Of a stretch of 64,000 nucleotides of DNA, positions 1 through 27,039 are shown in pieces; position 1 is the first letter of the stretch; each line of letters starts with the position of its first letter. The position numbers and the translations under genes are program-made. Source of the DNA: Mesotaenium endlicherianum. Lineage: Eukaryota. The notes under the pieces are model-generated. The model saw nothing but the letters and a program-made list of their open reading frames with translations, made no database searches and was not told the DNA's origin. The DNA lies in NCBI GenBank assembly GCA_009602735.1, contig WELA01000598.1, positions 113,321 through 177,320 of the forward strand, read 5' to 3'.

Positions 1-206
1 CCACCACTCAATTTGGCCCTTTTCAATCAGAAGATCACTAGGTGCTTAGATTCCTCCCATACCAAGATGACACGTTTGTTCCGATGGAGGCCCTTAATTG
101 GACCAATGTTGTGACAGTAAGACGGAAGCCATTAGTAGCTATTCTGGTGCCTTGTGTGGATTCACTTCATGGCAGTAAATTCCAGCTTTCACATTGCTGT
201 TCACTG

Positions 207-233
207 CACCCTGAGAATGGGCAAGGGGCGAAA
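207..233 (+). repeat. left terminal inverted repeat of the CMC element
   Basis: caccctgagaatgggcaaggggcgaaa, preceded by TG. Confidence 0.92.
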
Positions 234-1005
234 CTCAAAATAGGGGTTCGTTTTTGGCAAGGGCTGGCGCGATTTTAACCAATTTGGAGGCTGGAAATGA
301 ATAACCACATGTCTTGCATCCCGCTGGAAAATAAGCCCAAGTTAGAACGGCTTGTTTTTCCATTGATCCTTAGGATTGTTTTCCTGCCCACTTAGTGACG
401 TTTGTGTACCCCTGTTGTTGGTTGTTAATTCCACCCTCAATCCTGGAATACAATACACCCCGTCTTCTCACTGTACACTTTTTCTTCTTAATTATGCACA
501 TTCTGTACACCAAAATAGTGGAGTTATTTCCTGCCTCTTGGGATGTGCGTTATTATTCTCCTCCAAGGTGTGCACTATCCTTCTCCTTTTTGACACATTT
601 CCCTTTGAAATTGTGGGAGGAATTTTTCTTCAAATGCTTACCATCAATTTAAGCCTCCAACACTCTCCAAATGCCAGTAACAAACTGCATAATTAATGTT
701 CAATGCGATTCATATTCACACAATAAAAAGTAATGTACATTTCCATTGTATCCACAACTCTACAACTACTACTCAACTACTGGTTACACTTCATTTCGAG
801 GATTGCTCTTACCAATAAAGCCAACAGGCTACCTACTTCAACTAAAAGGCAGCACACATGCCGAGGTGTCTAGATGTGGGACATAGGCCAGCGCTGTCAG
901 ACAAATATCACGCCACAACCTAGTCAAGGTGTCCTCTTACCTCACATCATGCATTCTAGAACTACAAGGCACATGACCCCTGACCACAAGCACCCAGAGG
1001 AACTA

Positions 1006-2692
1006 CTATCTCTTAGTCACTTCTTCTGTTGCTTCTGTACTGGAAGTGAGGGCGAGGCCCTTCCCAACGATGCTGAGAAACTTCCTCTGCTTCCTCGACC
1101 CCCCCTCAGCACTTTTCCCTTGCCTGCACACAACCATTTCATTATCAATGCTGCGCACTTGCACTGTGGTGGTATTCAACGTCACCACATACTGCCCTTC
1201 ATGTGCACGGCAAAGAAACTCATTATTACGATTCTGATGCAGTGGGTGTTACAGGTGTTTTTGGGTGAGTGCGTGCATGTGTCTGTATGCGATGCATAAC
1301 GGAGTATGTTTCGAAGCAACATTGTCATACATACACCCCCCACTCCGCCCACCATTAACCAGCAGCAAAGCAACAAAAGCATTCTGACCGGTGTGTGACA
1401 TGACGCCCAAGCCCTGCTGTGTATGCACATGCACGACGGCTTTCACATGCACCTTTAAGTTCACAATAAAGCAACTATGACAACGCAAAATCTCGAGGGT
1501 AAACACGTGCATTAAATAATAACCTGAACAGCTTGCACATACCTCTATTCATGGAGTACTTTGGAGACATTGGCTCATCATCTTTGTCGTCAGATCCAGA
1601 TGAAGCTCCCTTGTTGCTCTCTTCTGATGGCGCGGACTCACTACTTGAGTCGTTCTTCTTGTCATCGTTCTCGACAGGCGTGTGCTCTGCCGCTGCCACG
1701 TTGACTTTCTGCAACCTCAACCGTTTCCCAAGCCAAGTTAGAACTAATCTGCTTGCATTAGTCCCATTCAAGCAACACGTGCTACATATACTTTCTACCT
1801 TGCAACTTCCTCGCACCTACACTTGCAATGTGAGTCACTTAATTGCGCCTTTCATCCACATGACACTGTGTATTACAATGAACATATATGGCATATAGGC
1901 AATACTTCCACGCAGGTCTGCTCGTGCATGACTTATCTGAGCTTCACCAGGTACTTATGGCACACCATCACTTCATGCATGCACACGAACTCTTCTAAGC
2001 ACAACTGACCTTCTTCTTGCACTTCTCTAGCAGATAGAGCTTCACGCTCTCGTGGAAAGCTGTATGCTCAGGCTTGTAGTCTGCCACGTTGGGCCACCCT
2101 GCTTGCCACGGGTTGTGCTTCTTGAGCAGTGATTCCACAATCCACTCTGCAGACTGATATGTGAGGACACCGGCGGCCTCGTCTTCCCACTCCATCAACC
2201 CCTTTGCCAGCCCCCGCAACATGTGCTTGCTGAGCAGGCGAGTCATTTCTGACCTCAAATTCTTCCACTTCTTGTTCAGTCGCTGCAGCCACACACCCAC
2301 CATTGAACAGTATTAGGAAGCATGTTCTACCAGCCACTCATTGCAAGCAGATTAACTACAAACTCGTGAACAGTATAGGTGCACTGCAGTTGCTCTATCT
2401 ATCCGCATTACAATGTGCATTCGGATGTCCTTACCTTCAATAAATCAGCCAGAAGTGTCTTTCCAGGAGCGTAGAATGTTTTGTTGCGCCTGATGTAGAC
2501 CACCATGTTACTCGCCTTCGCTGTGGGCTTTGTGTAACCTCTGAGCACTTTCTCTGTTATAGGGTCCTGAAGGCGAAGCAGGACCTTGAGAACCATTTCT
2601 ACCTGCTTCATTGCTTGCACCTCATCTGTCATTAACCAAAAAGTGAGGTTGAACTTACGCAACGCGTTCCACACCTCCTTCACGGCTTTAAC
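1006..2692 (-). CDS. spliced accessory gene of unknown function inside the CMC element (first and last exons uncertain)
   Basis: Three phase-compatible GT-AG exons: 2692-2435 (VKAVKEVWNALRKF...LADLLK), 2282-2010 (RLNKKWKNLRSEM...LEKCKK) and 1708-1543 (acidic/Ser-rich). A probable last exon lies near 1191-1006, but its phase is unresolved. The KKWKNLR motif is reminiscent of a Myb/SANT-like helix (inference). Confidence 0.6.
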
Positions 2693-3590
2693 CTGCAACA
2701 TATCCTCAACATATCACTCCTCTCACAATTAAGTCATACATACCCCATGGGTACGTGTCACATTCACTTATGCATTCACCTAGTGCAGCAGAGAACACGC
2801 AGACAGCTGCAATACCCACACAGTTCAATAATCAGCATGTTATTTCTGCCTCATGTACTTTCTTTCATCGCCAACACAGTAGGCCATCTGCAGCAGACCC
2901 CATAACGAGCTGATATAGACACAGAGTATCCCCATTCAACACCTGCTAATATGCAGCATGCAGCTGCAGATTGCAGAATGAATCTTGTACTGCACTGCAC
3001 AGTTGTATATATACTGAAAAGTACTTTCACAGTTGAGCTTATTGCAATTACAGCTGATACGGCGAATGCAGAGACGCCATGGCTACAATTATTCTCACTA
3101 GCTACTAGCTGTTTGCTGTTTGATTCCTCAGAGAGATGCATATGAGAGCAGCCATATACGGCGTGAAGCTAAAGCTACTGCCCAATAGATCTCGTCCCTT
3201 TCAATGATCTAGCTCTGCTCACCTACTTTGGTCCATTATAATTCGTCGCACCTCGTAAATTCGACAACACACACGTGGTCGTTTTTTATACCGACGATGT
3301 AAGTTGTACTTCCATCTTGGATACTAACACGTACTCTTTTAATAGGCTTTCATTGCGGGTGAGGTAGGTAGACACATTTTCATCCACCTAAACTCGTCGA
3401 CTTACTGCACCACACAAATCCGCGACTTAGGTGAATATGCCAGGTACACTTCCAAACTCAATTTAGGTCTCCATTGGGTCCCCGAGGACTCTCCTGCTTC
3501 ATGCTCACTAGTTAAGTATATTCTTTCAACACACCTCTCTCAGAATCATATGTCGCGTTTGTATTTGTAGGCACGTCATAGGTAAACACA

Positions 3591-6588
3591 ATGTCCTCCT
3601 CTAGACTTGACAAGGTTTTGGAGGACTCCAAACGAGTATTTTTGCAACTCACTGTCCTACAAAATGAAGAACAGTCTCTACTAGGGCCGAAAAATGAAGC
3701 TTCTGCCAATGCTGTGCAAAAAATGCAAATGCAGCTCGACAAGGTTAGCTTGGAGAAGTCTTTCCTGCAAGAACAAATAGCAACATTAGAGGGTATAATT
3801 GCAGCACGTTGCAAGCACGACAGTAAGTACTGTGAAGAGAAACGACAAGAGTGGGTTAAGAAAAACCTTGCCCTGAAGGTGGAGAGGAACTCACTCGCCG
3901 AAAGAATGGCGCTCTTTAAGGCGCATAGAAGCCATATTGATTGCAATCAAACTTATTTCAACTGGCAAAATGTAGTTCCCAGGGAACTCACACATCAATT
4001 GCTATTGGAGGATTCACAAGGTGTTGAAGACAGGGAGAAGACAGCTGTGCTTCATTTGAGCTCCCCGAGCTGTCGGATCCAAGAACCACAACCACAGGCA
4101 CCAGAGGCAGGCATTCAAGACGCAATACACGTTGTCAAGCGCGCCCCCTCATCTCTCAATGTAAGCTGCTATACTCGCGTGTCATTGTATTACACCTTCT
4201 GCAGCCCCCCTTATCGTTAAGTGCATGTATGTTTCAGGAACCCCTCTTTGTTCTACAAGTTCCTTCTCCTACACACTACTTTTGAATTCATGACATATAC
4301 TATAGGAAGTATACATGCGGGGCCCCTTCTCCTCAATTGTGGGTGGTCCTGGATGATCCAATCCCGCCTACATATACTCTTTAAGCAATCTCCCTCTTCA
4401 TTTTCGCTTCCCCTAGCTGTCACCAACTGTGAGGTTAAATGGGGTCTATTTTTTGTCTCTTACCCTTTGCCTGCATCATGCTTGTGCATTGCCCTCACCT
4501 TCACCCCCCCCTTTTGCGTGTATTACTCACTCAGCCCCCAATCCGGCCCCTTATTCTTGCCTGTATCTGATGTTCTGCCTTTCTTTTTCGATTACTATCC
4601 ACTCACAGTACGCTCTCACCTGTGTGTGTCTCACTCTTTATGTCATGCTCCTTTGTCTAATTCTATTTACTATGCCCTTTGCCCTCGAGCCTGCGCTTTC
4701 TCTCATTGTCCTTCCTTTGCCATGCATATGTGCACCTCTGGCCTTACATTAGTGCCCACCCTCGCCTTCATCACCACTCACTGTGCCTTTCTTCCCTTCC
4801 ATTGCCCTTGCAAGTGCTTTATCTTGCCAGCTGTTTTCTTCTGTGCCTCTCCTGCTACTCTATCCGCTCATCCGCTCTTTTGGCTATATCGGATTACTTA
4901 GATGTTGTCATGATGCATTATGTATCCTAGCTGTGTCTGTGCCAGAACCCTTATTCCCCAATTTAGGCATACATATTCTCTTGCCTTTCTTTGTGCTGGT
5001 TTCCCCCTCTCCCTTCCTGTCCTCTCTTTTGCCTTGGCCCTCTACCTCTTTCCTGCATTTGGTGCTGTAGCTATCGATTATGCTTAGTGCTTGTTTGTTG
5101 CTCAATGTGAACTTGAGCTATATGTCACCCGACTTGCGGGACTTCCTCGACATACTCCTCTCTTGAATTGGTTTCTGACAGAGAGAGCTGGCGAGGGGAG
5201 CGTCCCCGGGGGACGATGAGGGGCCAACGAAACCCATTCGTCTCTTTCCTTATCAAGGCTCTCTCGTTGTACTTGTATGCACTTCCATGTGCCAGGAAGG
5301 GATACTCACTGCTGATGAGGTTCGTTTAACTTACCATCCTTTCATAGGATCCTTTTTTTGCACACCTTGTGTTAAAACTCTATCATGCATTTTTTTGTGG
5401 TTCAATTTGTGACATTCTTTCTCTGTTTTTCCAGCAGCAGGTAGCTCTTGTAAGGGAAAAAGGTGTTTCTGAAGACCCGCATGCTATCCGGGTTGATAAT
5501 TCAAGGGGCTCAACTGTTGGCTATGTGCCTCAAGAAGTGAGCAAGCATCTCTCCCCGCTCATTGACACCCCAGGTTGGGTAAGGATGTTCGGTACTGTTG
5601 CGAGATGGAGAGAAGGAGCACCTCAGGTACCATGGCCTTATGTTTTACTCTCCAGCCATGTCTCCCATGAATAGCATCTGCTTGCCGCATGCCATGGAAT
5701 GATTGCATGGTTGTCACTGTTTGAAATGCAATGATTGGGCGTGTGTTGGGCAGAGGGGTGGAGAGGGCGGGGCAACATACCTTGGGTCATAACCTACCTA
5801 TGTGCCTCATGCACTACCTGTTCCTTCTATGCATGCTAATGCAGGTCCCCTATTCTTGCATGGTTTGTTTTTGTGCATGTATGTGCTGTGCTGCAGCTTC
5901 GTTGCATATTCAACCTATACTTTTCCAGGCAATATGAATCATACATCAAAGGCAAACTTAAGCAAGGAAGTCTGGTCATGATTCATGTTGAGAGATTGAA
6001 GAACACGTCGGTCGAGGACGCCTACATGAGTGGTGTTTCGGAACCTTACAATGTGACATGCTCCCTTCAACAGCCACAGACACCACTTCCACAAGTGAAA
6101 CAAGCTGTTGACCGCGCTAAAAAGGTATGCATTATTGATTTATCAGATTGATTTACATGCTCTTTAGTTAGTTTATTTGCCACTAGCATCAGCTACTATG
6201 TTCATTAAGAATTACTGGTTGCCTACATGCATGCTCTGGAGTTGAGAGGGGCTCATTTTAGTTCTTGACTATGCGGCAGAATGTGTTTTTCACATGCTTT
6301 TCCTTTTTGTAATTACAATATATGACACTGCTCCTGACATATGCAGATTTCTTGCACACATGCTTGCAGAGGACGCACGGCGAAGATGCTCTTAGCAATG
6401 CCGGGCAAGAGGACTGCCCTCACCCGAGTGCAATGCCTTCTTGGGGACTTGACCAATTGGGACAAGGTAGGGGCAATGTCTTACGTCCGCTCAACTCAAA
6501 TGACGGTACTTCAGGCATATTAGAGCAGCCTGATGACAACAATGCTCTAGGCCGAAAGTTCTCGTGGAAGAGAATGTGTCAACATTAG
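3591..6588 (+). CDS. coiled-coil + HIRAN-domain protein (~448 aa) encoded inside the CMC element
   Basis: join(3591-4160,5182-5319,5435-5626,5897-6124,6370-6588). All introns are GT-AG and phase 0, giving an open frame. Exon 1 is heptad-like and rich in L/Q/E/K. Exons 2-4 give 'GILTADE-QQVALVREKGVSEDPHAIRVDNSRGSTVGYVPQEVSKHLSPLID', which matches the HIRAN pattern L-x-RE-x-x-N-x-x-D-x-x-AI-x-V...VGY[IV]P...LS-x-L-x-D of HLTF/Rad5. Confidence 0.8.
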
Positions 6589-7074
6589 GACATAGGTAGA
6601 CAAGTAACAGTGCTTAACATTTTTTAAAAGAAATCGTTTTATGATATTTTGTTCCACTTCAAAAATGGCATGTGTTCAAATTCAACAATGAAGAAGAATT
6701 GCCTCAAGAATATATGAAGAAGGAAATATTGGTGCCTTATCGGGTCATCTGTGACTGCATTTGATGCACCGTGGAGTGCCTAATACGATAACATGTTCAT
6801 AGTACACCTTGTGCCACAAGTAAACTACCCCAGCATTTAATATCCGTATGGAAAGTACACCTAGTCTACAAAGGTTTTGACAATCAAAACCCACACGACA
6901 TAATATGCAAAGAGAACCAACTTGTGTCTAATTTCTCTGGTAGTCGGAATTGTCACTTGAACTCGACACTTGCAGTCCAGCTGCCAGCCCAAGCATCCAA
7001 GAAAGATAAAGTTTTTTACAGCGATGACAGGGAGAGGGGAAGAGGGATAAAACAGATTGAGCGAGGAATTCACA

Positions 7075-7079
7075 TATAC

Positions 7080-7110
<31 letters not shown>

Positions 7111-7111
7111 C

Positions 7112-7183
<72 letters not shown>

Positions 7184-7617
7184 NNNNNNNNNNNNNNNNN
7201 NNNNNNNNNNNNNNNNNNNNNNNNNNNNNNNNNNNNNNNNNNNNNNNNNNNNNNNNNNNNNNNNNNNNNNNNNNNNNNNNNNNNNNNNNNNNNNNNNNNN
7301 NNNNNNNNNNNNNNNNNNNNNNNNNNNNNNNNNNNNNNNNNNNNNNNNNNNNNNNNNNNNNNNNNNNNNNNNNNNNNNNNNNNNNNNNNNNNNNNNNNNN
7401 NNNNNNNNNNNNNNNNNNNNNNNNNNNNNNNNNNNNNNNNNNNNNNNNNNNNNNNNNNNNNNNNNNNNNNNNNNNNNNNNNNNNNNNNNNNNNNNNNNNN
7501 NNNNNNNNNNNNNNNNNNNNNNNNNNNNNNNNNNNNNNNNNNNNNNNNNNNNNNNNNNNNNNNNNNNNNNNNNNNNNNNNNNNNNNNNNNNNNNNNNNNN
7601 NNNNNNNNNNNNNNNNN

Positions 7618-7658
<41 letters not shown>
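7075..7658. repeat. (TA)n and (GA)n microsatellites flanking an assembly gap (N 7184-7617)
   Basis: TA run about 7075-7113; GA runs 7114-7183 and 7618-7658. Confidence 0.97.
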
Positions 7659-7665
<7 letters not shown>

Positions 7666-9543
7666 AGAGAGGGAGAGGGAGAGACATTTAGAGAGAGAGA
7701 GAGGAGAGAGGACGGGAATTGGGGCAGAGACGTACCGGTGCAGGAGGGTGCTGACGAGAGTTGCCCCCTTCAATAGGTATTTCCGCATAGCCAATCTCAG
7801 CGCAGAGGCCCGTCTGCCCCCCTTCCTCCAGCCGACATCCTGCATCACCATGTGAACAAAAGAGGGAGAGCAACAAAATACAAGGAGAGAGAGAGATCGA
7901 TAGTGAGCAAGAGAGATCAAAATAGTGAACAAATACAACAAGAAAGTGAGAGAGAGAGATAGAGAGGGTGTGTTAGTGATACACAGCGCGCTGACCAAAT
8001 ACGCCCACACCCCCTAGATATCACAGCTGCCGTCCGTCACTCACAAGGCGCACGCAACATTTGTGCATATCCTGTGACCACGAGCGCCTCGCTCGCGCGC
8101 GCTTTCACACTCGCTGCAGGCTCCGGGGGTCTAGGGTTTGGAGTCAGGGTTTTTGGGTCTGGGGCAGGGGTTTGGGGTGGGATTGAACTCAATATAGGTT
8201 CCTATTCTTGGCCTCTCTCGTTTCCTCATCCTTCAGTCCGCCGGCCACACCTAGTCGGCGGATAGGGAGGCAGAGGCGGAGGAGGAGGAGAGAGCCGACG
8301 TCGAGGGTTCAAAAATCTTGAACGAGGATTACAGCACCATGCAGAAGGCCATGGGCAACAACGGTGCGCCGCATTAAACCCAAAAATCCCCCAAACTCTA
8401 ATAAACAGCTCAAATCTTGATTAACTTCAAAGTTAAAAATACCATACACCCTAATCCGGAGCCAAGAGGCCAAACTCAAGCCCCATCTTGAGCGTAAAAA
8501 CCCTAATCTTGAAACTAGCACTCTGGCCCCTGGCCCTCATTTTTGGTCAGGTTCAGGCGGGAGCTCCAGACGTCGCCAAACTTGAAAAGGAAGAGAAAAG
8601 CAAAACACATATAAGAAAACAAACAAACAGACAAAGAAAAGTAAAGATTCCCAGCCGTCTCCTGGCTCTGGCTCCAGATTTGAGCGGCCGAGTGGACAAC
8701 GGGGATTCGGCAGTATTAAGAAAGCACGACAAGTGCCAAAGCACCAAGCAATGTGAACGGTCACATGCAGGCGGGTCCTTGTGGCCCTAGGCCCCCACGT
8801 CTAAACCCTAGGCCCTGGGGCTGGCCCCTAGGCCCCGGTCAGAGCCTTTGTGACCTGATCCCCCCTTCCCCCCTTCAAACTCTCCTCTTCCCCCTGGCGT
8901 GCCCCCCTTTTTCACTTCCCCTCCCTTAACTTGAAGAGAATTTAGGACTTTGGGTTTATATTTCTTATCCCCTCTCCCTCCCCAGGCGGGCCCTCTCCTC
9001 AACATCCCGGCCTCTTTCCCTCACCCAAGAAGAGCTACACACTAAACCTAGTCCTAACCCTAAGCCCCAGTTCCTCAAACCCTGTCCTGAAACCTCTGGC
9101 AGCAGACTCTGCGAACGAACGCTCTTCAGGGGGTATGTGCATCTATCTGTACGCACGGCCCTAAACCCTAAACCCAAAAGCTTCTCCCAAAGGATGCTTC
9201 GGGACCATCCACAGAACTACCAAGTGGGAGAAAGCAAAAACTTAATCGATCCACGGATGCGCTGTCAGCTCCTCCCCCCCCCCNTCTACATAAGGTTTGG
9301 GTTGAAGGCTTGGGTGAACACTCTAGAAAGAGCGCATCCTCTGCCATATCCCCCCCCCACGCTGAGTGCCTCCTCCCTCCCACTCGGGAAGCGCCCGGTC
9401 CGAGGGCAGAGGGCAGCTTGGAGCGACGGGGATGTAGAGCCGGCCAGCCGATTGTTGCGCGGCTGCTGACACCTGTCGCCGTGCACCGCACTGACTAAGT
9501 GCTCGCTTGCGTGTCTGCATGAGAAAGGGGGGGGGGGGGGGGG

Positions 9544-10498
9544 NNNNNNNNNNNNNNNNNNNNNNNNNNNNNNNNNNNNNNNNNNNNNNNNNNNNNNNNN
9601 NNNNNNNNNNNNNNNNNNNNNNNNNNNNNNNNNNNNNNNNNNNNNNNNNNNNNNNNNNNNNNNNNNNNNNNNNNNNNNNNNNNNNNNNNNNNNNNNNNNN
9701 NNNNNNNNNNNNNNNNNNNNNNNNNNNNNNNNNNNNNNNNNNNNNNNNNNNNNNNNNNNNNNNNNNNNNNNNNNNNNNNNNNNNNNNNNNNNNNNNNNNN
9801 NNNNNNNNNNNNNNNNNNNNNNNNNNNNNNNNNNNNNNNNNNNNNNNNNNNNNNNNNNNNNNNNNNNNNNNNNNNNNNNNNNNNNNNNNNNNNNNNNNNN
9901 NNNNNNNNNNNNNNNNNNNNNNNNNNNNNNNNNNNNNNNNNNNNNNNNNNNNNNNNNNNNNNNNNNNNNNNNNNNNNNNNNNNNNNNNNNNNNNNNNNNN
10001 NNNNNNNNNNNNNNNNNNNNNNNNNNNNNNNNNNNNNNNNNNNNNNNNNNNNNNNNNNNNNNNNNNNNNNNNNNNNNNNNNNNNNNNNNNNNNNNNNNNN
10101 NNNNNNNNNNNNNNNNNNNNNNNNNNNNNNNNNNNNNNNNNNNNNNNNNNNNNNNNNNNNNNNNNNNNNNNNNNNNNNNNNNNNNNNNNNNNNNNNNNNN
10201 NNNNNNNNNNNNNNNNNNNNNNNNNNNNNNNNNNNNNNNNNNNNNNNNNNNNNNNNNNNNNNNNNNNNNNNNNNNNNNNNNNNNNNNNNNNNNNNNNNNN
10301 NNNNNNNNNNNNNNNNNNNNNNNNNNNNNNNNNNNNNNNNNNNNNNNNNNNNNNNNNNNNNNNNNNNNNNNNNNNNNNNNNNNNNNNNNNNNNNNNNNNN
10401 NNNNNNNNNNNNNNNNNNNNNNNNNNNNNNNNNNNNNNNNNNNNNNNNNNNNNNNNNNNNNNNNNNNNNNNNNNNNNNNNNNNNNNNNNNNNNNNNNN
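9544..10498. other. assembly gap flanked by poly-G
   Basis: 955 N with G runs on both sides. Confidence 0.99.
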
Positions 10499-10589
10499 GG
10501 GGGGGAGGGGGGAGTGCAACGGTTGTGTATAGATGCGAAGCGGACATTGGCATAGTCGGGCTTTGTCCGACGTCGTGAGGGCATAAAGT

Positions 10590-12510
10590 GTGTGAACAAA
10601 AGAGGGAGAGCAACAAAGACAAGGAGAGAGAGAGATGGTGAGCGAGAGAGGGCAAAATAGTGAACAAATACAGCCAAAAAGAGGGAGAGAGAGAGAGAGA
10701 GGGTGTGTAGGAGTAGGGAAAGGCAAGCACTCAGTGGGCATACCTGCACACATAAGTTTCACGCCAGCTGCCCCCTCACGGACAGGCTCAGCTGAGATAA
10801 CCATATGCCACCCTCCCTCCAGCCGACATCCTGCATCACCGTATGGACAAGAGAGAGAGCAAATGAGAAACAAAGAGAGAGAGAACGTGAGCAGAAAGGG
10901 AGTGAAGAAAGGAAGAGAAGAACAGAAAGCTAACGAGAGCGAGCAAGAGAGAGAGAAGGATGAGAGAGAGAGGGGAATAGGGGCACGAGACGGGCGAGCA
11001 GACAGGAGGCATACCGGTGTAGGGAGGTGTTGACGCCAGCTGCCCCCTTCATATGGCCAATCTCAGTGCAGAGAAGCAACTGCCCCCCTTCCTCCAGCCG
11101 ACATTCTACATCACCACATTGACAAGAGAGATAGGGAGAGAGAGAAAGTTAGCAAGAGAGGGCCGTCGAGGGAGCAAAGTAGCAAAAAAGCGAGCTTGAG
11201 AGGGAGAGGGGGAGGGTGAGAGAGAGAGAGAGAGAGGAGAATATGGATGGGGACAGGCAAGCACTCAGGGGTCATACCAGCACAGATAGGTGTTCACGCC
11301 AGCTGCACCCTTCAAAATCTTTTTGCGCATGGACAACCTCAGCAAAGAGAACCATCTGCCACCCTCCCACCGGCAACATCCTGCATCACCTAATGGGAAA
11401 AAGAGAGAGCAAGCAGGATAGTAGGAGAGGAAGAAAGTGATCGAGAGTGGGAGAGCAAAAGAGACCTAAACAGAGCAAGCGGGAGTAAGAGAGACACCCA
11501 AAGAGTGAGGGAGGGTTTATAGGGGCAGGGACGGGCACGAAATGTGGAGACACACCAGTGCAGGGAGGGGTTGACACCAGATGACCCCTCTGCGAGCTTT
11601 TCGCGCATGAACAGGCTTAGTGCAGAGATGCATCTGCCACACTCCCTCCAGCCAACAGCGCGCTTCTCTTTATGGACAGAGGTGAGGTGGCGAGAAAGAT
11701 AAGAAGAGAGAGAAAAAGTGGACAGTGGGAGAGAAAAGGAGCTAGCAGAGAGAGCGAGCGAGAGTGACAGACAGGAAGACAAAGAGAGGGAAATAGGGGC
11801 AGTGATGGGAGAGCAGTCATGAGACACACCGTTGCAAGGAGGTGTTGACGCCAGCTGCCCCCTTTGATAGGCTTTTTCGCATGACCAGTCTTTGCTCAGA
11901 GAACCATCTCCCCCCCTTCCTCTAACCGACATCCTGCGTCAACTTATGGACAAAAGAGAGAGCAAGAGAGATTGGAAGAGAGAAAGAGAGAGAGACAGTG
12001 AGCAAATGGGGGCAGAAGAGGGAGCAAAGTAGCAAACAAGCGAGGGAGAGAGGAGAGAGGGAAAGAGAGTGAGGGGAAAAGGGGTGGGGACAGGGAAGCA
12101 CTCAGGAGGCATACCGGCGCAGATAGGTGTTCACGCCACCTCCACCCTTCAAATGCTTTTTGCGCATGGACAAGCTCAGGAAAGATAATCACCTGCCACC
12201 CTAACTCCACCCAAATTCGTGCGTCACCTTATGGAGTATAAGCAAGGTGGATAGTAAGAGAGAGAAAGTGAACGAGAATGGAAGAGCAAAACAGAGTGCA
12301 AAACAGAGCGAGCAAGAGTAAGAGAGACACCCAAAGAGTGAAAGAGGGTAATTGGGGAAGGGACAGGCAAAAGCCGAGGAGACACACCAGTGCAAGGAGG
12401 TGCTGACACCAGCTGGCCCCTCTGCGAGCTTATTGCACATGGATAGGCTCAATGAAGAGAACCATCTGCCACCCTCCCTCCAGCGGACATACCCCATCAC
12501 CATATGCCTA
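10590..12510. repeat. degenerate tandem array of ~275-280-bp units (about 7 copies, plus a further copy at ~7620-7980)
   Basis: The core 'catctgccaccctccctccagccgacatcctgcatcacc' recurs near 7812, 10802, 11078, 11352, 11631, 11905, 12191 and 12462, separated by GA-rich spacers. Confidence 0.88.
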
Positions 12511-12802
12511 CAAGAGAATATGTGCTTAATTTTGCATGATTGCATAGTTGAAAACAGAGGACCACATGGCACCCATAGACCAGAAAGCGCTCCAGAAAAA
12601 GTGGTGCAAAACAGGAGGACATGAAAGGCGGGGAGGGCTACAGGTTGAGTGGGGGTAGGATGTAGAATACATACCTGCCTTAGGACGCGGATAGTTGAAG
12701 CTTGAGGCATCACAAAGAGGTTACACATAACAAGGCCTTTTAAGGCCCCACTATGTCCAGCATGCTGAGATCTCTAACGCAGTCACGTCTAGGTGCACCT
12801 GG

Positions 12803-15800
12803 CTAAAAGTGGTTCAGCAGGAAGTGGTCATTTGTGTCCTCTTCATGAGTATGTTCTAGTTCCCCCTCTTTCAGACATTCACCCTCCTGGCAGTGGCTGT
12901 TATCTACACGGGTTTTGTGCTTGCACATCCTATGCACCCCGCACAATAGTGAGTCCCGCTCCCACTCTGTGTAAAGGTCTCTCCTGTTAAGCTTAGATCT
13001 ATCCAATACGTAAATAGGAATGGGATTCTCCCTCCAACAGTAGTGCTCCACCTGAATTGTGGAGATAACAACACTCATGGGTACAATTACCTCAGGACCG
13101 CCATAGCTTAAGACAGGATGGAGCGTGTCAGGGTCAAACTTTGGGATGTTCCTCCTCCCAATCACTCGCTTGAATGATCTCACCTTCGCCCACACATATG
13201 TAGACCCACTAGTGAGCTCGTGAGCAAACAACCCTGTGAGTGTGCCTATCCATACATCACCACCCTGCCGTGCCGTACCAATACCATGTAGACTACAGGC
13301 TACAGAAACATGGTCTCCAACCTTGAATGAACCATGCACATCTCCCTTCTGAGCTTGAGTGCACTCAAACGCCCAAGGGCGAACTCTATCCAATGGAAGC
13401 TTCATCCAAGGGCCCCTTGATGCAAAGAAGATGGTATTGTACAAGGTGTGTAAGGACTCCTTAGTCACTCCAAGATCATTCAAAGGTTTCCTACTCGCCA
13501 ACTTCTTGCTGCCTGTCCACCTGGTAATAAGAAAGAAACAATGACAAGTCACGGGTCAGTATACAGGGTGCAGAACCACGCTGCAGGCACCACCCACTTA
13601 CTCCAACTCTTTGCAAACACAAAGAAATAGCAAGAAATGAACAGTGGTACTGTGTATCATCCAAAATGAATGACAATTATAATGAGCAAGGTTGCTAATG
13701 CACAGTACTTATGTGTATACGCAATAGTACAGCAAATGCAGAAGAGCATAGCACCTGGAAACTTAAGACAGCATGCAGCTAACAATGATATTGATAACAA
13801 GCACCCAGAAGTATAATGTACACGAAGTATACTTCCTTGCTATGGCGCCGTAGGCCGTCTGATTCAACCTGTCCAGCTTGCACTGGTACAGCTCCTTCAC
13901 TTGTCCCTCGTCCTTAACCACCCACACAGTGGGTTCCAGGGGGGCTCCCTCAACAGCTGCCACCTTCTTCATGGTTTCACATCTTCTCACCATATCTACT
14001 AAGTCATCATCCATGCCTAACGCTCTTGTGAGCGCATAATCTGTCCCAGTCAGTATGTCTATCACGTTTGCTCTACCCACAGATTTCCTCAACAACCAAG
14101 GAGTAACAGGTTTGCAGTGCTTATTATTAAGCGATTGCATGTCTTCCTTCACATATTTATGCCGCCCCTCAAACTCTTGTGTCCACAGATGCTTCAAAGG
14201 ACCAAATATCCGCATGAAATATCCCAAATGCAGCAGAGCATGCAAGTTGTGGTTAGCAGCATATAGTTTCCCCAATCTACGCACTAGTGCATCGGGCTCT
14301 GGGGGCCAAGCTTGTACGAAGGACCGATGAAACTCAACAGCTAGCCGTTCTACCTCTTGTATATCATGCTCACTGGTATTAGATGCGAGTACTAATAAGA
14401 CTATCTGATTAAGCAAAGTCCATAGTTGCAGTGCTTCAGCCCTATCTGTGAAGGCCTGCGTATCATACCTGTAGTTGACCCTCTGGTGCCCAACTCTCAT
14501 CGATGGATCACACCATGGGCGTAACAAAAGAGGCATCACGGAGAGGAGACTAAGGAACATCATCCCCGGGTAGTTGGCATAATGAGTCATGGGGTCCTTA
14601 AGTTTATCTCTACCAGCTGGAACGTTCATGTTCACAGCAGCAATATTAAAAGCTTCTACCTCGTGGGGGTTCCAGCTGCACTTTTCAAACGTGTAGTGAC
14701 ATAGCTTCTTAATGAGGCCTAAGCATATAAGGTGAAATACATTAGGACCCATTTGTAGAAACCTATCAAAGTCTGGGAGAGCTTCAAGCGGGTTGGGTAT
14801 GCCATTGTGACCTTTTCCCTCCCAACCAGCCGCTAACGCTTCCCTGTCCTTGTCAATCAGCCCCTCTACTGCCCTATTAAAAGCTCTGGCACGCTCCTCG
14901 GTCCTCATCTCCCACCCTTGTGGTAACTCTGGTACAAGCAAGCCCTGCCTTCTAATATAGCAGCAAGGACAAGGGTAATTACTGTTGAGTCCTGTCAAAT
15001 GCAGACTCTTCATTCGCTGTGGTGAGTCCTGACTAAATGAAGGCTTCACCCTCACCAAACACTCTCCCTTCAAAGGAGCGAAATACATGTAAACTCCTCT
15101 GTGTAGACTTTCCAGATCACCTACAACTATATGCTGCATAACTTCATCTGATATGGCTTCATCATCTCCAAAGCCTATGACGCGTATGGTCTTTGTGTCA
15201 CGTATGACATCACTATGAAGGTTCTGTATGCGATAGTAATATCCACAAACACTCTTCCTTTTCCTTCTGTACACTCCAAAGTCATCTGCAAAGATACTAA
15301 TAGCCAAGTTTACTACAGGAAGGTTTCGAGGATTTTGGCCTTCCAGGACTTCCTCACGTGGAGCATCAAAGGCCCCAGCAGACAGACTGACAGGTAGTTG
15401 GAGTCCACTCTGTAGCTCCTAACTGCACCAGAACGTAAGAACCCCTTCAACGTTATACCCCTTGTCTAGGTGCGGACGTCTAGCTATTTTGTCAGTCACG
15501 ACATTGCAGACACCAATAACACAGCCTACGGCAACATCCCTGCACTCCTAAGTGAGGATGAGCTCACCATGATGTCTCTGGCCTTGAGCAGCTTTTGGGT
15601 ATTGCATTATTTGCACCTGAAGGTAAGGGTCGGGCATCTTTCCACGGCTGTCTGACCACAGGATGCCTCGCAAAATAGCAACCTCCTTTGTAACACCCAT
15701 GCCTGCGCAATGACGGTGAACAAAGAGGGGGCCGCAAGATGTGCAAAAACAAGTAAATAAGAGAGTGAGAAAGTGTTGGCAGGGAGGAAAAGAAAGAGCT

Positions 15801-17461
15801 AAAGGGGGCTGGAGAAAGTGCAGTGGCTAGAGCCCAAAACAAAAGTGCTAAGAAATGAGAAATCATGTAAAAGACAGGCAAAACAACACACGCAGATGTG
15901 AATATGGCAAATGCAGCAGGGAGAAGAGCATGGGCGCATAAATAGACCAACACATTACAGTAGGAGAAAGCAAACAAAAGGGGCGGAAGGAGACAAGGAA
16001 GGAAGAAGCATAGTAACAATCTTAAAAACGAGTGCATGCGACACAACAAAAAGGAAAAAATAATAGCAGGCGGATTGAAAAACGTAACAGGCGACATATG
16101 CCAAAAAAAGAGTTGGCCAACAGAGGAACAGGTACAAGTAGGCAGAGCCGACACAAGACAGATTGGAGAACCAACAAGGAGCATGAGAGAACGCTTTGAA
16201 GGAGGGAAAAAAAAAGGATCAAAGACATAAGACGTGAGGTGGCAGGGATTGATGAGGAGGAGCTCACCAGCAAGAAAAAGGAAGTCCCCCAGCTTAACAG
16301 AGATGCTCTCTCCATTCACCATTATGACACAGTTGTAGTCCATAAAGAAGGGGTCTTGGGTGACAAACCGAGAATTGTATATCCCAGTCACTTTGCCCCC
16401 TACTTTGAGCTCTGCCTTCCAGTGCAAGTCCATGCAAAATGTTTCATTTTGCAGATTCACCTGTAAGCTATGTGGAATACTCCGAGCAAATAATTGAGCC
16501 TTACTCGCCGGGAGGTTTGTTGTTGTGACACCTAAGAGTTGTATGACACTCCGTAACTTTGTGTGAACATCAGGATGACAATTTTTCCGGTGTTCATAGT
16601 CATACAAGCCACTATGAAATTTGATATTATGCCTAAACCACTTAGAGGTCTTGGTCCCATTGCCATGTAGCTCCTCTAAGGCATACTCACACAAGGTGGT
16701 AAGGTTCCCAAACATTCCAAACGAAGTGGAATCAGCACATAGGAGAAAAGACTTAATCTCTTTTGATGTCCACTGCTTTACAGAAGGTGCATGATCCCCA
16801 TCAAACCCATTACCTTCAACTCCATGACCCGCACTATTAGGCACACCCTGTGCATTGAGTGCCAGTGCCGCATCTGTACCACGTACTCCAACCACTTCTA
16901 CAATAAGAGGTTGTGAAAGAATTTGTCTCTCGTCCGTGTGCTCCTCACTGGCAACTACAACAGTTGCAGGTAATCGTGGGCTACCTGCAGGTGTCTGCGT
17001 GGGAGGAGATACATGATCCATGTCGTCACCCAAATCATCGCCTACATCAAACAGTTTGAAAAGTCAGAGATGAGTACATTTGCTGGTGAGTACCCCATGT
17101 TTTGTATTGACAGTTTAGCTATCAATCGCAACTCTCGGCATTCAATCACCTTGTAGCATGTTTTGTGACCACTTCATGGGCACAATGGAGTGCATGCAAT
17201 TAGATACGGGGCCTGTAAGGAACTCAGAGGTGGCAATACAGTACCTGCAGTGGGATCATCGAAGTCCATTGCCTGACGTACACGGTCACGGCCTGTTACC
17301 TCTCCTTCTTGCAGGGCCGTTGTCGTCCGCAACAGACTCTCATTTTGTGGTGAAGTAAAAGAGGGCCTTGCCCACACAGGTTTGCACTGATGCCTGTACA
17401 GAGTTCTGTGTACATACATATTTTCACAGTGAACACACTTAAACCTCTGAGGAGGAACCAT
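12803..17461 (-). pseudogene. CMC/EnSpm-type DDE transposase (~1192 codons, 4 exons) with two in-frame TAG stops
   Basis: join(17461-17245,17041-16268,15702-13833,13520-12803) is phase-consistent (3579 nt). Motifs: IFADDF (D), QDSPQ (D), CPCC, FHLICLG, NLHALLH and QEFEGRH (E), i.e. the CMC signature C(2)C / H / H(3-4)H. There is an N-terminal CxxC-x10-H-x-C finger. In-frame TAGs lie at 15548-15550 and 15419-15421. Confidence 0.85.
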
Positions 17462-18060
17462 TGTTTAGAATAATATAAATCATGGGTACGAATGAATAGG
17501 TACAGATATAGCTACTTCTATTATTAACGCATGATTTATAGAGCGAAGCACTAATGAACGCCTCAGTAATATGGTTCTAGGTAGGTTTGAGACGCCACTA
17601 GAATGTAGTATTGTTTCACCCGGGTTAATTGTGAAGGACGTTTAATTTGAAGGCAGGGGCAATTTGTGCTTTGTGCTTTCGATCATGTAGAGCTATATGT
17701 GCACTTGAAGAAGCCCTACGGTAATAGGTGGTACACAACTACCTGATAATTGCGTGGACCTAAGTAAGATCCACACGACGATGCGCTAGCGGTCCTGCGA
17801 ATGACCTGCGACGTCATTTTGGCAGTCGTAGGGCATACTCAAGATACTCGCAGCCCATTTGGTTCAATAAAAGGGCGTGGAGGCTGAATTTCCTTCCTTC
17901 GAGGTGGAGGGCAAAGTAACTGCCCGGTTTCGGCGCTAAGGTGGGCATATTCTCACGGTTGGGTTAGAAGTAGTGGGATTTTCGGCGGTCTGCTTGACCG
18001 AAATGTGTCATTTTGCCCGGCACGACCTTTCGAGAGCTGGGAATTACGCGCGCTGACCAA

Positions 18061-18087
18061 TTTTGCCCCTTGCCCATTCTCAGGGTG
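18061..18087 (-). repeat. right terminal inverted repeat of the CMC element
   Basis: ttttgccccttgcccattctcagggtg, followed by TG. Confidence 0.92.
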
Positions 18088-19789
18088 TGGAGCGTCGACA
18101 ATCCGGTGCATATATGTCAGGAAGCTTCTCGATCGTCATGCATTTGCAGTAAGATTGATCGATGTGTCATCGATTGAGCCGAATAATTTTTCGAAGGGTC
18201 AAACGCTTCGATCGGCAGGTGTGGTTGGGAGCAGCTTGGAAGTTTGGCGCAGAGCGAGGTAAGACATGTCATAGTAACAGTACAAGCGGAGCTCAATCCT
18301 TGATGCCCAAGGCAGACTTCGCGATGTGAGTTTAGCGCTTTTAGACCGCTAGGCTCCCAGTACCGTTGAAGTTATGCTTAAATTAGCGAGAACCGGCAAC
18401 TTCATCGCGACAGCTAGACGGTTGAACTATGATTTGAGCGTGAAGACTTTGACAAATTTTGCAACATTAAAATCGCCAAGGTATTTTCAAATTCATTCCA
18501 ATCATTTATCGCGAACATTCGGAAATATAAAGTTGGTCCAAGGGATGGAATTATAATCAGATGGAATGATGTGAAGTTTCGGCCTCTGTCGGTTGGGGTC
18601 GATCCGGGCTTATCTCTTTGTTCACATGGTAAAATATGGAGTTGACAGTACATCTGGTCTACAGCTTTGTCAGCCTTTGCATATGTTAGGCCTTGATTGA
18701 TAGCAGGCACACTGAGCATGCAAGGACTTGTGTCTTGTGTATATACAAGATTTGAGACCATTTTGGGGAATTGGAAGGAAACGACTTCTTTCAAAATTGT
18801 ATTCTTAGTGCATCATAGGTGTCGCCAGCCCCTTTTTACATGCCATCTATGGACCTAGAAGAAGAACTGTGGTGATCATTGGAGTAATGGGCAGTTGTGA
18901 GGGAGCGATAGCTACAGCTAGGGAAAAAACAAGGAAGAAAGATGGACCTGAACGAGTCTCCTCCTCTATAGCTGATATTGTCCCACCACCTGCCCCTGCT
19001 CCTTTCTCCCCTTCAGCTTTTGCCCTTGCCCCTTTGCCCTCCCCCCTCCTTCTGTCACCCTCTCCTCAGTTCCCTCCGCCTCGACCCATCTCCTTACTTC
19101 CAAAAGTGAAAAGCAGACTTGTGTTTAGAGTTCTCATGACAATTTCTACTGCACGTGCAAACTGCAGACTACAGATGCTGCCACGTACTTCCGGTAGAGC
19201 AAACAAAAGTCAATGGATGTCCTTGGGAGCATCATCTGAGGCTGTCAGCGCCCCCCCCTTGAGAATGTGCAGGCTATCCCCACGCCAAAGCGTCCTCAAT
19301 CCTGGTCTACAAACCCCTCTTCAGGACCATTTTGCCATACATATAGCCTTTTGTTCACGTACTTCATACAGTTCTTTGTCGCTTCACAGACACATGTGCT
19401 ATCACTTAGAGGAACTTTTCAACATTGCCTGTAGGGAATCAGTGCATCCCTAGGGTTTTACCATGTGACCCCTCATTGTCGGATTCTTGCGTATTGCAGA
19501 TGTATGTGAAAGCGAGGAAGGAAAGCACTTGTGGAGCTCTGTGGGGGGGTTCTTCCTTGATATTGGATGCACGTGTCAGTCAGCCATCGGTCCTCATGGG
19601 AGAACAGCACAGCAGTCTTAGCAGTGGAGTTCTCGCTCCTCCTCCAAGACACCTGGTACTGCTATTTTCCTCACTGGCAATCGCGTGTGAGCCTCACTTG
19701 CAGCAGCGGAGGGACTTTGCATTTTGAATACTCGATACCGGATTCATTTTCTTGACACTTGAAATGCTTGTGTGACATGCTGTTCTACT

Positions 19790-21722
19790 GAGAATTGACG
19801 ACGTGAAAGGGTGCTGGTGGGGGGCTTTTGACGCGGTTGGGTGCAGGCGGGGAGGGAAAACCCTCGGGGAAGGGGTGTGTGAGGGCCAGAAGGTCAGCTC
19901 CTGCTAGGGCCCAGCATCACGAGCAGTAGTAGGATGCGCGCTCCTCTTCTCTTTTGTCGCTGGGAGGTGAGTAGCTTCCGCAACCGTCCCAAATCCACAC
20001 AGAGTCCTGCCCTAGACCCCAACTCGGAACTTACAGTGGCGCCTGCTTGGGGGCGCGTCCCTCCCCAGGTGAAGGGGGCTTTCCTGGTTGGCATCGGGTT
20101 CGGCGCTTTTCTTTGCAAGGCACTTCACAGTCTGTCGGGGGGTCTTTGTAACACCTCCACCTCTTCCCCCTCTTAACTGCAAGGGGACGGCGTGGTGCCA
20201 GCTGGCAGCACCTGAGACGTCGCCCGGGGATTTGGCCCACCCTCACCACGAGGGCCCCGGTGGGGGCCTTAGAGGAGCACTGCGAGCGTGACTTATGACG
20301 GCTTTGGTGCTCTCAGGGCGAAATGAGGAGCAGGGGGGAGAATGTATGGGTGCGGGTGTGCGTGCTCGTCTACGAGCACCTGCAGATGGATCTGCGCTTC
20401 TACAGGCAGGTGTGAAGGGATGGGGGTTGGCGTTCCAACTTCCAGCTGCAGCTGGAGATAGGCTCTCAAGGGCAAGCTGCTCTGCTGTGGGGGGACGACA
20501 GCTCACAAGCCTTGTGCGCCGGGACAACGGGCGATGGTGCTGACATAGGGTGGAGGGGAAGCACCTGCAAGGTTCCTCTTTGTTATGAATGGTGGCTGTC
20601 TTTGAGTACGCCGATGATGCTGCGTGGGTCGGGCAACGGGTGAGACAGCTTCTCCCTCGACGTGCACGCTTGGGTGTTGCCTTTTCGCAGTTGGTGCAGT
20701 AGTCTGTAGATGGACCCAAGGGGGAAGAGCTTCCACGCAGGGAGTGCGATCGCGGGGCCACATCAAGTCCTAAACCGTGACCCCGCCTGCTGGTCCTGGT
20801 GTGCTGGCACCTGCCTTGCGCGTCCCCCTGCCACCCACTCACTCGGTCATCTCGGGTGCACAGCTGGTCCGGCATTTCCCACCGTGCTGCGCTTTGCGCG
20901 CAACCTGACATCACGTGCGGTCGCATGCTCACTCGTGCTCATTGAGACACAAGCATTAGGCAGAGGTGGTGTGAACAGGGCCCTGGCTTGCTTGCCATTG
21001 CCCTGGCTGGTGGGGTTGCCAGATGCACATGATCAATTCCCCCCCGCCCCTCCTCTGCGCTACCTCTCCAGTCCCTCCCTTTGATAAATCATGTCTGCCC
21101 TCTCCATATTTTTGCCTTTGTCCTACATGCTCTGGAGTCTGCTACCATGTGAGTATTGAGTGCCTTCATGTGAAAGGATACCGCCTTGTCTTTTATCCTT
21201 GGGGGAATGCTGCTGGCTAATGAATAAGTTCCCATTTTGCAGCAGTGCCAGGTGTCGGGCAGAAGCCCGACTTTCATCTCCATGTGCTCCAGGCCCCCCG
21301 TTGACCAGCCCGTTCTGTACGCTTCTGCGCCTGCGAGGAACCAACACGATGCTTTCTGTTCGTGCTGCTTTCCCCCTCACACACACCTGCCCCCTCTATT
21401 TCCCAACTTCCTCAGCACTCTCATTGCCGCTGTGGTGGTGCCAGCTGGCGGTCACGTGCAGCTGACGAGAGCATGGTGGTTCCGTCCATGTTGCCATTGC
21501 CGCGTCACGCCCACCTGCAGATGGCGACAGCTGCTGTCCTGATGACAGAGTGTGGGGGCAAAGCACAGTGTGAGCAATGATTGGCTCAACGTCCAGACAC
21601 CTGGCGCCGCTGTGAGCTGGATCTCTGCTAGCTGTGGGAAATGGGGAAATGCTCTTGACACCTGTCACCACGGAAGGCCTCGTCCACAGCCACAAGGCGC
21701 TCGCGTGTGCTTGCGTTGGTGT
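19790..21722 (+). repeat. ~1.9-kb degenerate segment, inverted copy of 43020-44790, with receptor-like-kinase-like fragments
   Basis: Long collinear similarity, e.g. 'ctcaacgtccagacacctggcgccgctgt' at ~21586 vs the reverse complement at ~43120-43150. Broken-frame fragments read CVLVYEHL and DVARG(L)AHL. Confidence 0.75.
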
Positions 21723-23621
21723 CTTTTTGTCTTCATTACAAAGTTTGATTGGCTCATTTTTGCTCTGACTAATTTGGCCAGCGCTACTGCTGCTGCTATG
21801 CTATTCTGTGCCGCTGTGCACTCTGGTCTATATGCTCGTGTGCTTCATGTGGGGCTGCGGGGTTGCGTGAAACCATGGATGTGAGGAGGGGCAGTCTGTC
21901 GAAGCTCGTCCTCCGTCACTGCTCTCTTGTAGACTGCGGCTTTCTCTCAGCAGCAGGCGCCACAGAAGATGAGGATGTGAGTTGTTTCTCTCCACTCTTC
22001 CTGTGACCTCTTGCCCCCTTACCCCCATATCCCCTCTACCCATAACCCAGAAAATGTATTTGGCAGCTTTTCAGCCCTAGTTTGCCCTAGGACCTAGGTT
22101 ACTGGATCTCTTGCACATCATTGCCTGAGTCAGCCCACAAGCTCACTTTTTCTCCAATGTTGCATCCTCCTCCTCCTCCTCCTCGCCCACTTCCTCCTCT
22201 TTTACTTCTGCTTCGTCCTGTTTTTCCTCCTCTTTTCGTTTCCCTGCTCTCCGCATTTCAACTTGATGTTTTACTCCACCGTTCAGCCTACGCCTCCTCC
22301 TCCACCACCCCCTCCTTCTGGGGCCAGCCCGTCCCTCAATGAGCATGCTTTTGTTTGTTGCTCCCTCAGCAAACTGCATGTGGATGGATGATGAATCACA
22401 GAAGTAGCCTGTGCTTGCAGGTCGGGTGTGCGTGCGCGAGTCGGCGGCTCCCTCCTACTCCTTCTCCTTCTCTAGGCCCTGGCCCTGCTTGCCTGCATCT
22501 GCGGCTCCCGCCTTGCCTTGCCTTCTTCCAGCCACACACTCGGTCAACATTGAGGCCGCTGACATGGCACATTCTGGAGTGTTTGCCATCTCACCCCTCC
22601 CTGAAGTCGCACGCGTGGAAGATAATACGTTATGTCTTCTACTTCTATTGCTCTGTTGGGTCTTTTGTGCTCGCTGCTGCTTGATCAATGGATGCACTCT
22701 TTTCTTGCAGTTGGGCCAGCTGGCACACCCAATCGGAGCTCAAAACTCCATGGAGTCTGCTGCTCCAGGTACAAAATTCTGTCTGGAAACCCAAAACCTG
22801 TAGACTTAACTTTACAGAGATGTTTGCCTTAATCGGTTCTCTGCTGATCACCCTGGGTCCGAACGAGACGCGTTCAGCACCCGCAGGTCCTTAACAGACA
22901 CCCTTGTTCTCTGCAGTGGTGCGATGGTGCCAGCTGGCAGGCTCGCGGATGACCTCATTGTGCCTAGTTTATGGGCGCGTGACGACCTGTGTTGTGTGAT
23001 GACGTATACACACACACGCATGCACATCTTTCTCTTTCTGGGCCTATCAATTCTTTTCTCCCTTCCACACACACGGTGGGTCAAATGCGCCCAATGGCCA
23101 GAGACGTTGCCACGTGGCACCCTCCTTTATAACCCCTACTGAGTTCCATGTCTTCAAATTTGGGTCTGCATGCAGTCCTTGGGGCGCACCCTCGGGTATC
23201 GACTCTGTTTGCATCGCGCAGAGGAGCGAGCGAGAGGGCTCTGAAAAACCCTGTCCCCTTGTGTGACGGCTTCCGTCATTGGATGTCCACCTACCTGCCC
23301 CCCCCTCTCCCCTTGTGGCCTCTCTGCCTGCTATGGTCTTCGCACACGTCTGCGGTTCCTTGCTTTCATGCAGGGTTACGCCGTTCGCTTGTTCGCTTAG
23401 TTCGCCAAGTGCGCAAGTTCGCTTAGTACGGTGTTCAAGAAAAGGCTTAGTTCGCCTAGTGCGCCAAGTCACGACGGCGTCGACGTCATGTAGCTCCGAC
23501 GTCGACGTCCCATGTCAGTGGCACATGTAAAAGTACTACGTCGTGTTTGACGGTTTTTCCCGTTGAGAATGGTTAGGTTTTTTTTTCAATACGCTATCGG
23601 AAGTCTTCGTTGCCCGCTGTG

Positions 23622-23793
23622 CAGCGACGAGTCTCGAAAAAAAGATTTTATTCATGACATTCACTCCGGACGTAAGCGGATGGGAGTGAACTTTTGCCAC
23701 TGGTTCCAGCGGCGAGTCTCGAAAAAGAGATTTTATTCATGACATTCACTCCGGACGCAAGCGGATGGGTGTGAACTTTCGCCACTGGTTCCA
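23622..23793. repeat. two-copy ~85-bp tandem duplication in the hAT subterminal region
   Basis: 'cagcg(a/g)cgagtctcgaaaaa..gattttattcatgacattcactccggacg..agcggatggg..gtgaacttt..gccactggttccag' occurs twice. Confidence 0.9.
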
Positions 23794-26984: not shown

Positions 26985-27039
26985 GATGCGCGTGAAACCT
27001 GCAATAACGAAGGGAATAAATAAAGCAGTAAGAAAATAG

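Follow-up and report, generated by a model that had tools for sequence, protein, structure and literature searches.

A 17.9-kb stretch at positions 207–18087 of the window analysed here, 64,000 nucleotides of DNA from Mesotaenium endlicherianum (assembly GCA_009602735.1, contig WELA01000598.1, positions 113,321–177,320 of the forward strand), probably belongs, as a broken member, to a multi-copy family of DNA transposons whose transposase is predicted to have the CMCT-type fold, and in this family a gene with a HIRAN domain and a further spliced gene, here called gene 3, would be carried as family-borne helpers. We give this reading a probability of roughly 60%. The CMCT clade comprises EnSpm/CACTA, Mirage, Chapaev, Transib and Plavaka, along with ESTA and Lanisha, and is defined by CA…TG ends as well as by target-site duplications (TSDs) 2–5 bp long (PMC12730594). 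The original prediction, made from the letters of the sequence, described perfect 23-bp terminal inverted repeats (TIRs) 17.9 kb apart with matching TG flanks, enclosing a transposase, a HIRAN gene, a third spliced gene and a tandem array, with two N gaps inside the element. Repeats and flanks can be read directly in the sequence, all four enclosed features are present, and the gaps lie at 7184–7617 and 9544–10498. The ends and genes are as follows.

205–206 (+): left TSD, TG (2 bp), the same dinucleotide as at 18088–18089
207–233 (+): left TIR with its CACCC end, supported by the inverted-repeat match and by three other-flank contigs per DNA run at exactly 207
1543–2692 (−): gene 3, encoding a protein of unknown kind; exons 2692–2435, 2282–2010 and about 1708–1543 (GT-AG model)
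3591–6124 (+): HIRAN gene; exons 3591–4160 (weakly supported), 5182–5343, 5435–5626 and 5897–6124
12803–17461 (−): CMCT-type DDE transposase; exons 17461–17245, 17041–16268, 15702–13833 and 13520–12803
18061–18087 (−): right TIR, complement of the left TIR and supported by a branching flank contig
18088–18089 (+): right TSD, TG, read from the sequence

Ends, copy number and decay

The termini read CACCC…GGGTG and thus have the 5′-CA..TG-3′ form of the CMCT clade. Positions 207–229 and 18065–18087 are perfectly complementary over 23 bp (26 of 27 bases overall), whereas the chance expectation for a perfect 23-mer inverted pair in a 64-kb window is about 3e-5. A 16-base end motif, with up to three mismatches allowed, occurs three times in the window: at both ends, and at 19255 with three mismatches, which is at chance level. 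TG flanks the element on both sides, as seen in one copy, and a 2-bp match of this kind would arise by chance once in 16 cases.

Reuse of these ends is indicated by contigs from the DNA runs X1, X2 and X3, which belong to one sample, possibly the source of the window itself, and therefore show copies in the same genome rather than lending independent support. Other flanks are joined at exactly position 207 in three contigs of X1 and three of X3. On the right side a single-copy flank contig starts at 18058, and with 31-letter words the branch is placed by inference at 18087/18088. Since contigs of this sample continue into different flanks on either side of the element, we regard these as real, reused transposon ends. 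A canonical CACTG end, which the flanking CACTG at 202–206 might offer, was considered and rejected, as there is no matching CAGTG on the right side and the contigs branch at 207. No clear subterminal repeat arrays were found in the element, and a metagenome scan with the TIR returned 0 matches.

Summed contig depth served as a rough measure of copy number, set against a single-copy depth of about 56–70 and with thresholds that differ between genes (80% likeness for the transposase, 85% for the other two). The transposase core reaches 6.6–9.4 times single-copy depth and its mostly-intron bins 1.8–2.3 times; exon bins of gene 3 lie at 2.6–4.4 times and those of the HIRAN gene at 2.2–4.5 times, with the DNA between these bins at 1.1–1.6 times. 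These values suggest about nine copies of the transposase and at least three to four of the HIRAN gene and of gene 3; they tell us that each of the three genes is repeated and are no precise copy counts. Exons are thus better kept than non-coding DNA in all three genes. Over 13886–15700, one sister transposase contig family has a depth of 262–275, about 4–5 times the single-copy value. This points to a young set of near-identical copies, perhaps active even now.

The copy in the window is itself broken, which the original prediction had overlooked: two in-frame stops lie in the transposase, at codons 382 (15548–15550) and 425 (15419–15421), and the HIRAN gene has lost a splice donor. The first stop is a glutamine sense codon in sister contigs that account for 457 of 520 of the depth; the second does not appear among the best 40 of 838 rows of sister differences. 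Likewise, the donor after position 5343 of the HIRAN gene reads AT here and GT at 5344 in two sister contigs. The two stops deprive this copy of the intact transposase frame of an autonomous element, and it could be mobile only with proteins supplied by a sister copy. Its CpG observed/expected ratio is 0.41–0.58 in the three element genes versus 0.84 in a PTPA gene elsewhere in the window, a depletion that would fit decay under methylation.

A divergent transposase with a RAG1-like predicted fold

The transposase model consists of four exons with GT-AG borders and 1192 codons. Its sequence is far removed from described families: neither Pfam (E ≤ 0.1) nor NCBIfam gave a match, Transposase_21, DUF4218 and PF18759 included, and a full scan of 1.84 billion representatives produced 27 matches at E ≤ 0.001, which are 21–37% identical. 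Named organisms among the ten matches looked up are Mesostigma viride, Mrakia, Biscogniauxia and two Tilletia species, and the nearest named relative comes from the alga Mesostigma (P0002). Among the 26 relatives scanned, four match the Plavaka Pfam domain (two above the cut-off, two weakly) and two match Transposase_21, both below the cut-off. Other searches yielded little: a word-index search of a transposase exon against longer proteins, a weak test, found no homologue, and the same kind of search with alignment A1, equally weak, found one match; a metagenome scan with the protein gave 50 pattern matches and 0 confirmed ones; and nothing significant emerged from a sequence-profile search of the PDB.

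Conserved positions nonetheless place the protein within the CMCT clade. All 19 rows of alignment A1 share residues D45, D131, C150, H229 and G234, and C150xxC153 and H393xxxH397 sit where the C(2)C and H(3)H motifs of the clade are expected. E417 falls on the glutamate conserved in most of the rows long enough to include this position and is presumably the catalytic E, which would complete the DDE triad of the clade.

Structural prediction agrees with this assignment. An AlphaFold model built from 23 sequences has a predicted local distance difference test score (pLDDT) of 71.7, and Foldseek matches it to RAG1 (E 6.6e-6) and BbRAGL. In a wide structure search the model aligned with RAG1 at Z 14.8 (root-mean-square deviation 5.3 over 355 residues), followed by BbRAGL (Z 14.2), the P element transposase (11.2) and HzTransib (9.6), against a background of 7.3. 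The transposase is thus predicted to have the RAG1/Transib-like fold by which PMC12730594 defines CMCT proteins. The last exon folded alone reached a pLDDT of 31. The nearest Atlas clusters are Transposase_21 (0.95; 175 of 256 features), then DUF4218 and Plavaka, a likeness at the level of features only.

A 20-row tree, which holds no named reference families and omits the matches outside A1 except P0027, pairs the transposase with Mesostigma P0002 at 87/87. This value is below the support threshold and the branch is long, and for these reasons, together with the missing references, the tree was not used for classification. By sequence comparison, the transposase appears deeply divergent and not assignable to any named CMCT lineage. 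Selection within the family was gauged from synonymous counts among the best 40 of 838 sister differences for the transposase, and among the best 40 of 281 for gene 3 and the HIRAN gene together. In the transposase, 19 of the 40 listed differences are synonymous versus 28% expected (p 0.006), and therefore the family has been under selection.

The accessory genes and the internal array

The four-exon model of the HIRAN gene is open for 384 codons, and further 3′ exons probably extend to about 6600. Exon 5435–5626 matches PF08797 with E 2.2e-11 and 43.9 bits, against a cut-off of 24.7; its alignment to the HIRAN domain of human HLTF has E 0.1. No helicase or RING part was matched by profiles in this gene. 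At 5531–5533, in the position of an HLTF lysine, the sisters encode arginine and this copy glutamine; the importance of HLTF R71 is stated in PMC6753471. Judged from its profile match and exon depth, the domain is real and repeated in the family, with a function that is predicted only. The literature search, with Repbase and Dfam outside it, found no HIRAN domain described in a CMC element, and the supplement of PMC12730594 contains 0 mentions of HIRAN.

Gene 3, read on the opposite strand, is modelled with three exons and 232 open codons, its start and end not having been found. Four raw RNA runs from other samples contain 0, 4, 9 and 1 reads, all less than 95% alike to this copy. Four reads, from one run of another sample and with 90–95% likeness, belong to gene 3, and two of these, derived from a sister copy, join a donor at 2010 to an acceptor at about 1692. 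This acceptor lies 16 bases from the modelled one and in a different frame; because the RNA joint uses it, the modelled third exon of gene 3 is provisional. The protein has no Pfam or NCBIfam match and reaches Atlas scores of at most 0.77. An apparent likeness to the C-terminal part of P0012 (Tilletia) was discarded, as its score of 41 compares with a shuffle mean of 38.

Between the HIRAN gene and the transposase lies a degenerate tandem array, interrupted by an insert and bordered by microsatellites:

7074–7710 (no strand): microsatellites of the (AT)n and (AG)n kinds surrounding N gap 1 (7184–7617)
7618–7973 (no strand): outlying unit of the 277-bp array, found by blastn, 61–72% alike to the other units
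7974–10590 (no strand): interruption of the array, 2.6 kb, containing N gap 2 (9544–10498) as well as poly-G and AAACCCTA motifs
10591–12517 (no strand): degenerate, purine-rich tandem array of about seven units of about 277 bp, from blastn and unit comparison

Its units are 59–76% alike over a 180-base stretch per unit versus 47% for shuffles, and the array is real but old; Tandem Repeats Finder did not pick it up. Within the interruption, 7974–9543 holds four of the six AAACCCTA/TAGGGTTT motifs of the window. This insert, which has no Pfam or Rfam match, may represent either a nested element or an island of promoter-like sequence; Rfam detected nothing in the whole of 1–18400.

Competing readings, known relatives and significance

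RAG/Transib-type enzymes bind the ends of their element, excise it and insert it with a stagger. By analogy with this clade, the transposase would bind the 23-bp repeats and excise the element, and insertion with a 2-base stagger would leave the TG duplication. The HIRAN protein may bind DNA 3′ ends produced by excision or target capture, whether at the transposon ends, at the broken donor site or at a stalled fork, and it might engage such ends during excision, repair or target choice. The product of gene 3 may have a TnpA-like role, as a DNA-binding or regulatory part of the machinery. A more far-reaching version, in which an unnamed deep CMCT lineage would use a HIRAN 3′-end binder as a dedicated transposition cofactor, for instance one that directs insertion towards stalled forks or governs how the excision site is repaired, and in which unrelated cut-and-paste superfamilies would have recruited HIRAN helpers independently, is at present a tentative proposal.

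Several observations weigh against a helper-carrying family. No single contig spans either compared half of the element and both N gaps are unbridged, and the depth values show that each gene is repeated rather than that the genes are linked in sister copies. Depth over the first exon of the HIRAN model is close to that of a single copy, and no homologue of the HIRAN exon was found in a word-index search with 11 candidates, a weak test; for gene 3, no homologue was found in Pfam, NCBIfam or Atlas. The synonymous excess is not significant in either gene, with 6 of 14 listed sister differences in gene 3 (p 0.15) and 6 of 15 in the HIRAN gene (p 0.22). Moreover, the NNPYD loop of HLTF aligns to GVSED in this broken copy, so that only the aspartate is kept of the residues N91, Y93 and D94, which we take to contact the DNA 3′ end in HLTF; the pocket looks degenerate.

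The last two of these observations, the unremarkable synonymous counts and a DNA-binding loop that is not HLTF-like, also speak for regarding the HIRAN gene as passive cargo, that is, as a piece of a RAD5/HLTF-type host gene that was picked up a single time and has been multiplied along with the family while playing no role in transposition. Capture of genes, domains and satellites is, furthermore, common in CACTA-like elements (PMC8978399). On the other hand, the exons of this gene are conserved among sister copies in which the introns have diverged, the domain resides in a multi-exon gene of its own with no helicase or RING match, and no close host-type homologue was found, although this last test is weak; we hold passive carriage to be unlikely, if still worth serious consideration. 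We find it improbable that the stretch is a chimeric join, in which the assembly would have fused the left part of one family member with the right part of a second one, at either the (AG)n or the poly-G gap. Such a join would make the TG/TG match a coincidence and the length wrong, and the layout of the family might be right all the same. Simple repeats do flank both gaps, about nine sister copies exist, neither compared stretch is spanned by a contig, and a 2-bp flank match has a 1-in-16 chance. Against this stand ends that match at 23 of 23 positions, flanks that agree, an equal single-copy depth of about 56–70 in both halves and the lack of any internal end motif. The repeats common to both sides of the gaps, with the 277-bp array on either side of gap 2 and (AG)n on either side of gap 1, favour continuity but fall short of proof, as two sister copies joined at a simple repeat would give the same picture. 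Least probable is that gene 3, the HIRAN gene or both belong to another mobile element nested in a simpler CMC transposon. The 2.6-kb insert that interrupts the array would suit such nesting, but profile scans found no second transposase in 234–12800, convincing internal inverted repeats are missing (among the 25 longest of 128 inverted-repeat pairs, none encloses the HIRAN gene), and, among the 12 listed of 93 rows, the loose ends inside the left half look like exon borders or diverged copies and not like another pair of element ends. We accordingly favour a single multi-copy family that carries both accessory genes.

How unusual this family is depends on its published relatives. The original prediction took the element for a non-canonical, cargo-carrying CMC lineage, and its CMC/CMCT type, its multiple copies and its extra genes bear this out, while the 2-bp TSD that it included comes from one copy. 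The claim that the element is no canonical plant CACTA also holds: like plant CACTA/En-Spm elements it is large and has extra coding domains and captured satellite arrays (PMC8978399, which also describes a 16.5-kb CACTA-like element with satellite DNA from Chenopodium), but it lacks a CACTA/G end, a match to Transposase_21 or DUF4218, clear subterminal arrays and a 3-bp TSD, its flanks having two bases in common rather than three. TSDs of 2 bp, which the prediction placed in other CMC lineages, are described for ENS1_Cis, CMC-NA, SmTRC1 and PlavakaA. The animal CACTA-like elements ENS1_Cis and CMC-NA share with this element CAC…GTG ends, and their 2-bp TSD would correspond to the TG flanks of this one copy (PMC6004678). 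SmTRC1, also with a 2-bp TSD, resembles it in having spliced genes as well as tandem repeats in its interior, and differs in having a Transposase_21 domain and a length of about 4.7 kb, compared with 17.9 kb, three genes and no detected Transposase_21 here (PMC1636069). Sly1-1 of Neurospora is likewise a large CMC element (11.5 kb) that has, besides its transposase, a second gene that is conserved but of unknown function; going by its description, it has two genes, divergently oriented in the Chaetomium homologue, in contrast to the three genes here (PMC4592977), where the transposase and the HIRAN gene are convergent.

Plavaka is similar in the 2-bp TSD of PlavakaA, to which the TG flanks here would correspond, and in the Plavaka Pfam matches of some transposase relatives, but Plavaka A and B end in TGT…ACA or CATCA…TGATG instead of CACCC, and PF18759 is not found here (PMC12730594). 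The TA-specific TSD of ESTA differs from the TG seen at this site. Lanisha, from the moss Ceratodon, is also a non-canonical EnSpm-like lineage in a plant genome (PMC8245031, bioRxiv 2020.07.03.163634); it is known here by description only, and may bear on whether the present lineage has already been named. Divergent CMC lineages are still receiving names, CNEST (PMC12810828) and Lanisha (PMC8245031) among them. Within the clade as a whole, this element is set apart by a transposase that has no Pfam match and relatives of 21–37% identity, and by its HIRAN gene, of which the accessible part of PMC12730594 makes no mention for the clade. The suggestion that this is an undescribed system is thus supported less strongly than it was put, as CAC ends, 2-bp TSDs, second genes, sizes of about 16 kb and internal satellites are already published for CMC/CMCT elements; the unusual features are confined to the HIRAN gene and the deeply diverged transposase.

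The remainder of the window contains a further transposon, a 7.65-kb hAT element at 23371–31020 with 18–19-bp inverted repeats starting CAGGGTT and a perfect 8-bp TSD; it encodes a DUF659 and Dimer_Tnp_hAT transposase on the minus strand and has an internal array of 62–66-bp units at about 27–30 kb. Two diverged copies (about 72–93%) of a 1.7-kb repeat lie in opposite orientation at about 19870–21710 and 43030–44710. Other genes include a divergently oriented pair of F-box/leucine-rich-repeat-like paralogues at 35079–36410 (−) and 39562–40983 (+), and the PTPA (PP2A activator) gene at 49488–51248 (−), whose single long frame is GC-rich and whose domain carries a low-complexity insertion.

Little is understood about the helper genes that eukaryotic DNA transposons carry. 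If the HIRAN gene were passive cargo, this would merely be another large, decayed CMC element; if it is a true helper, it would link cut-and-paste transposition to a domain of replication-fork repair known from HLTF/Rad5. The transposase, for its part, broadens what has been sampled of the clade from which RAG1 arose.

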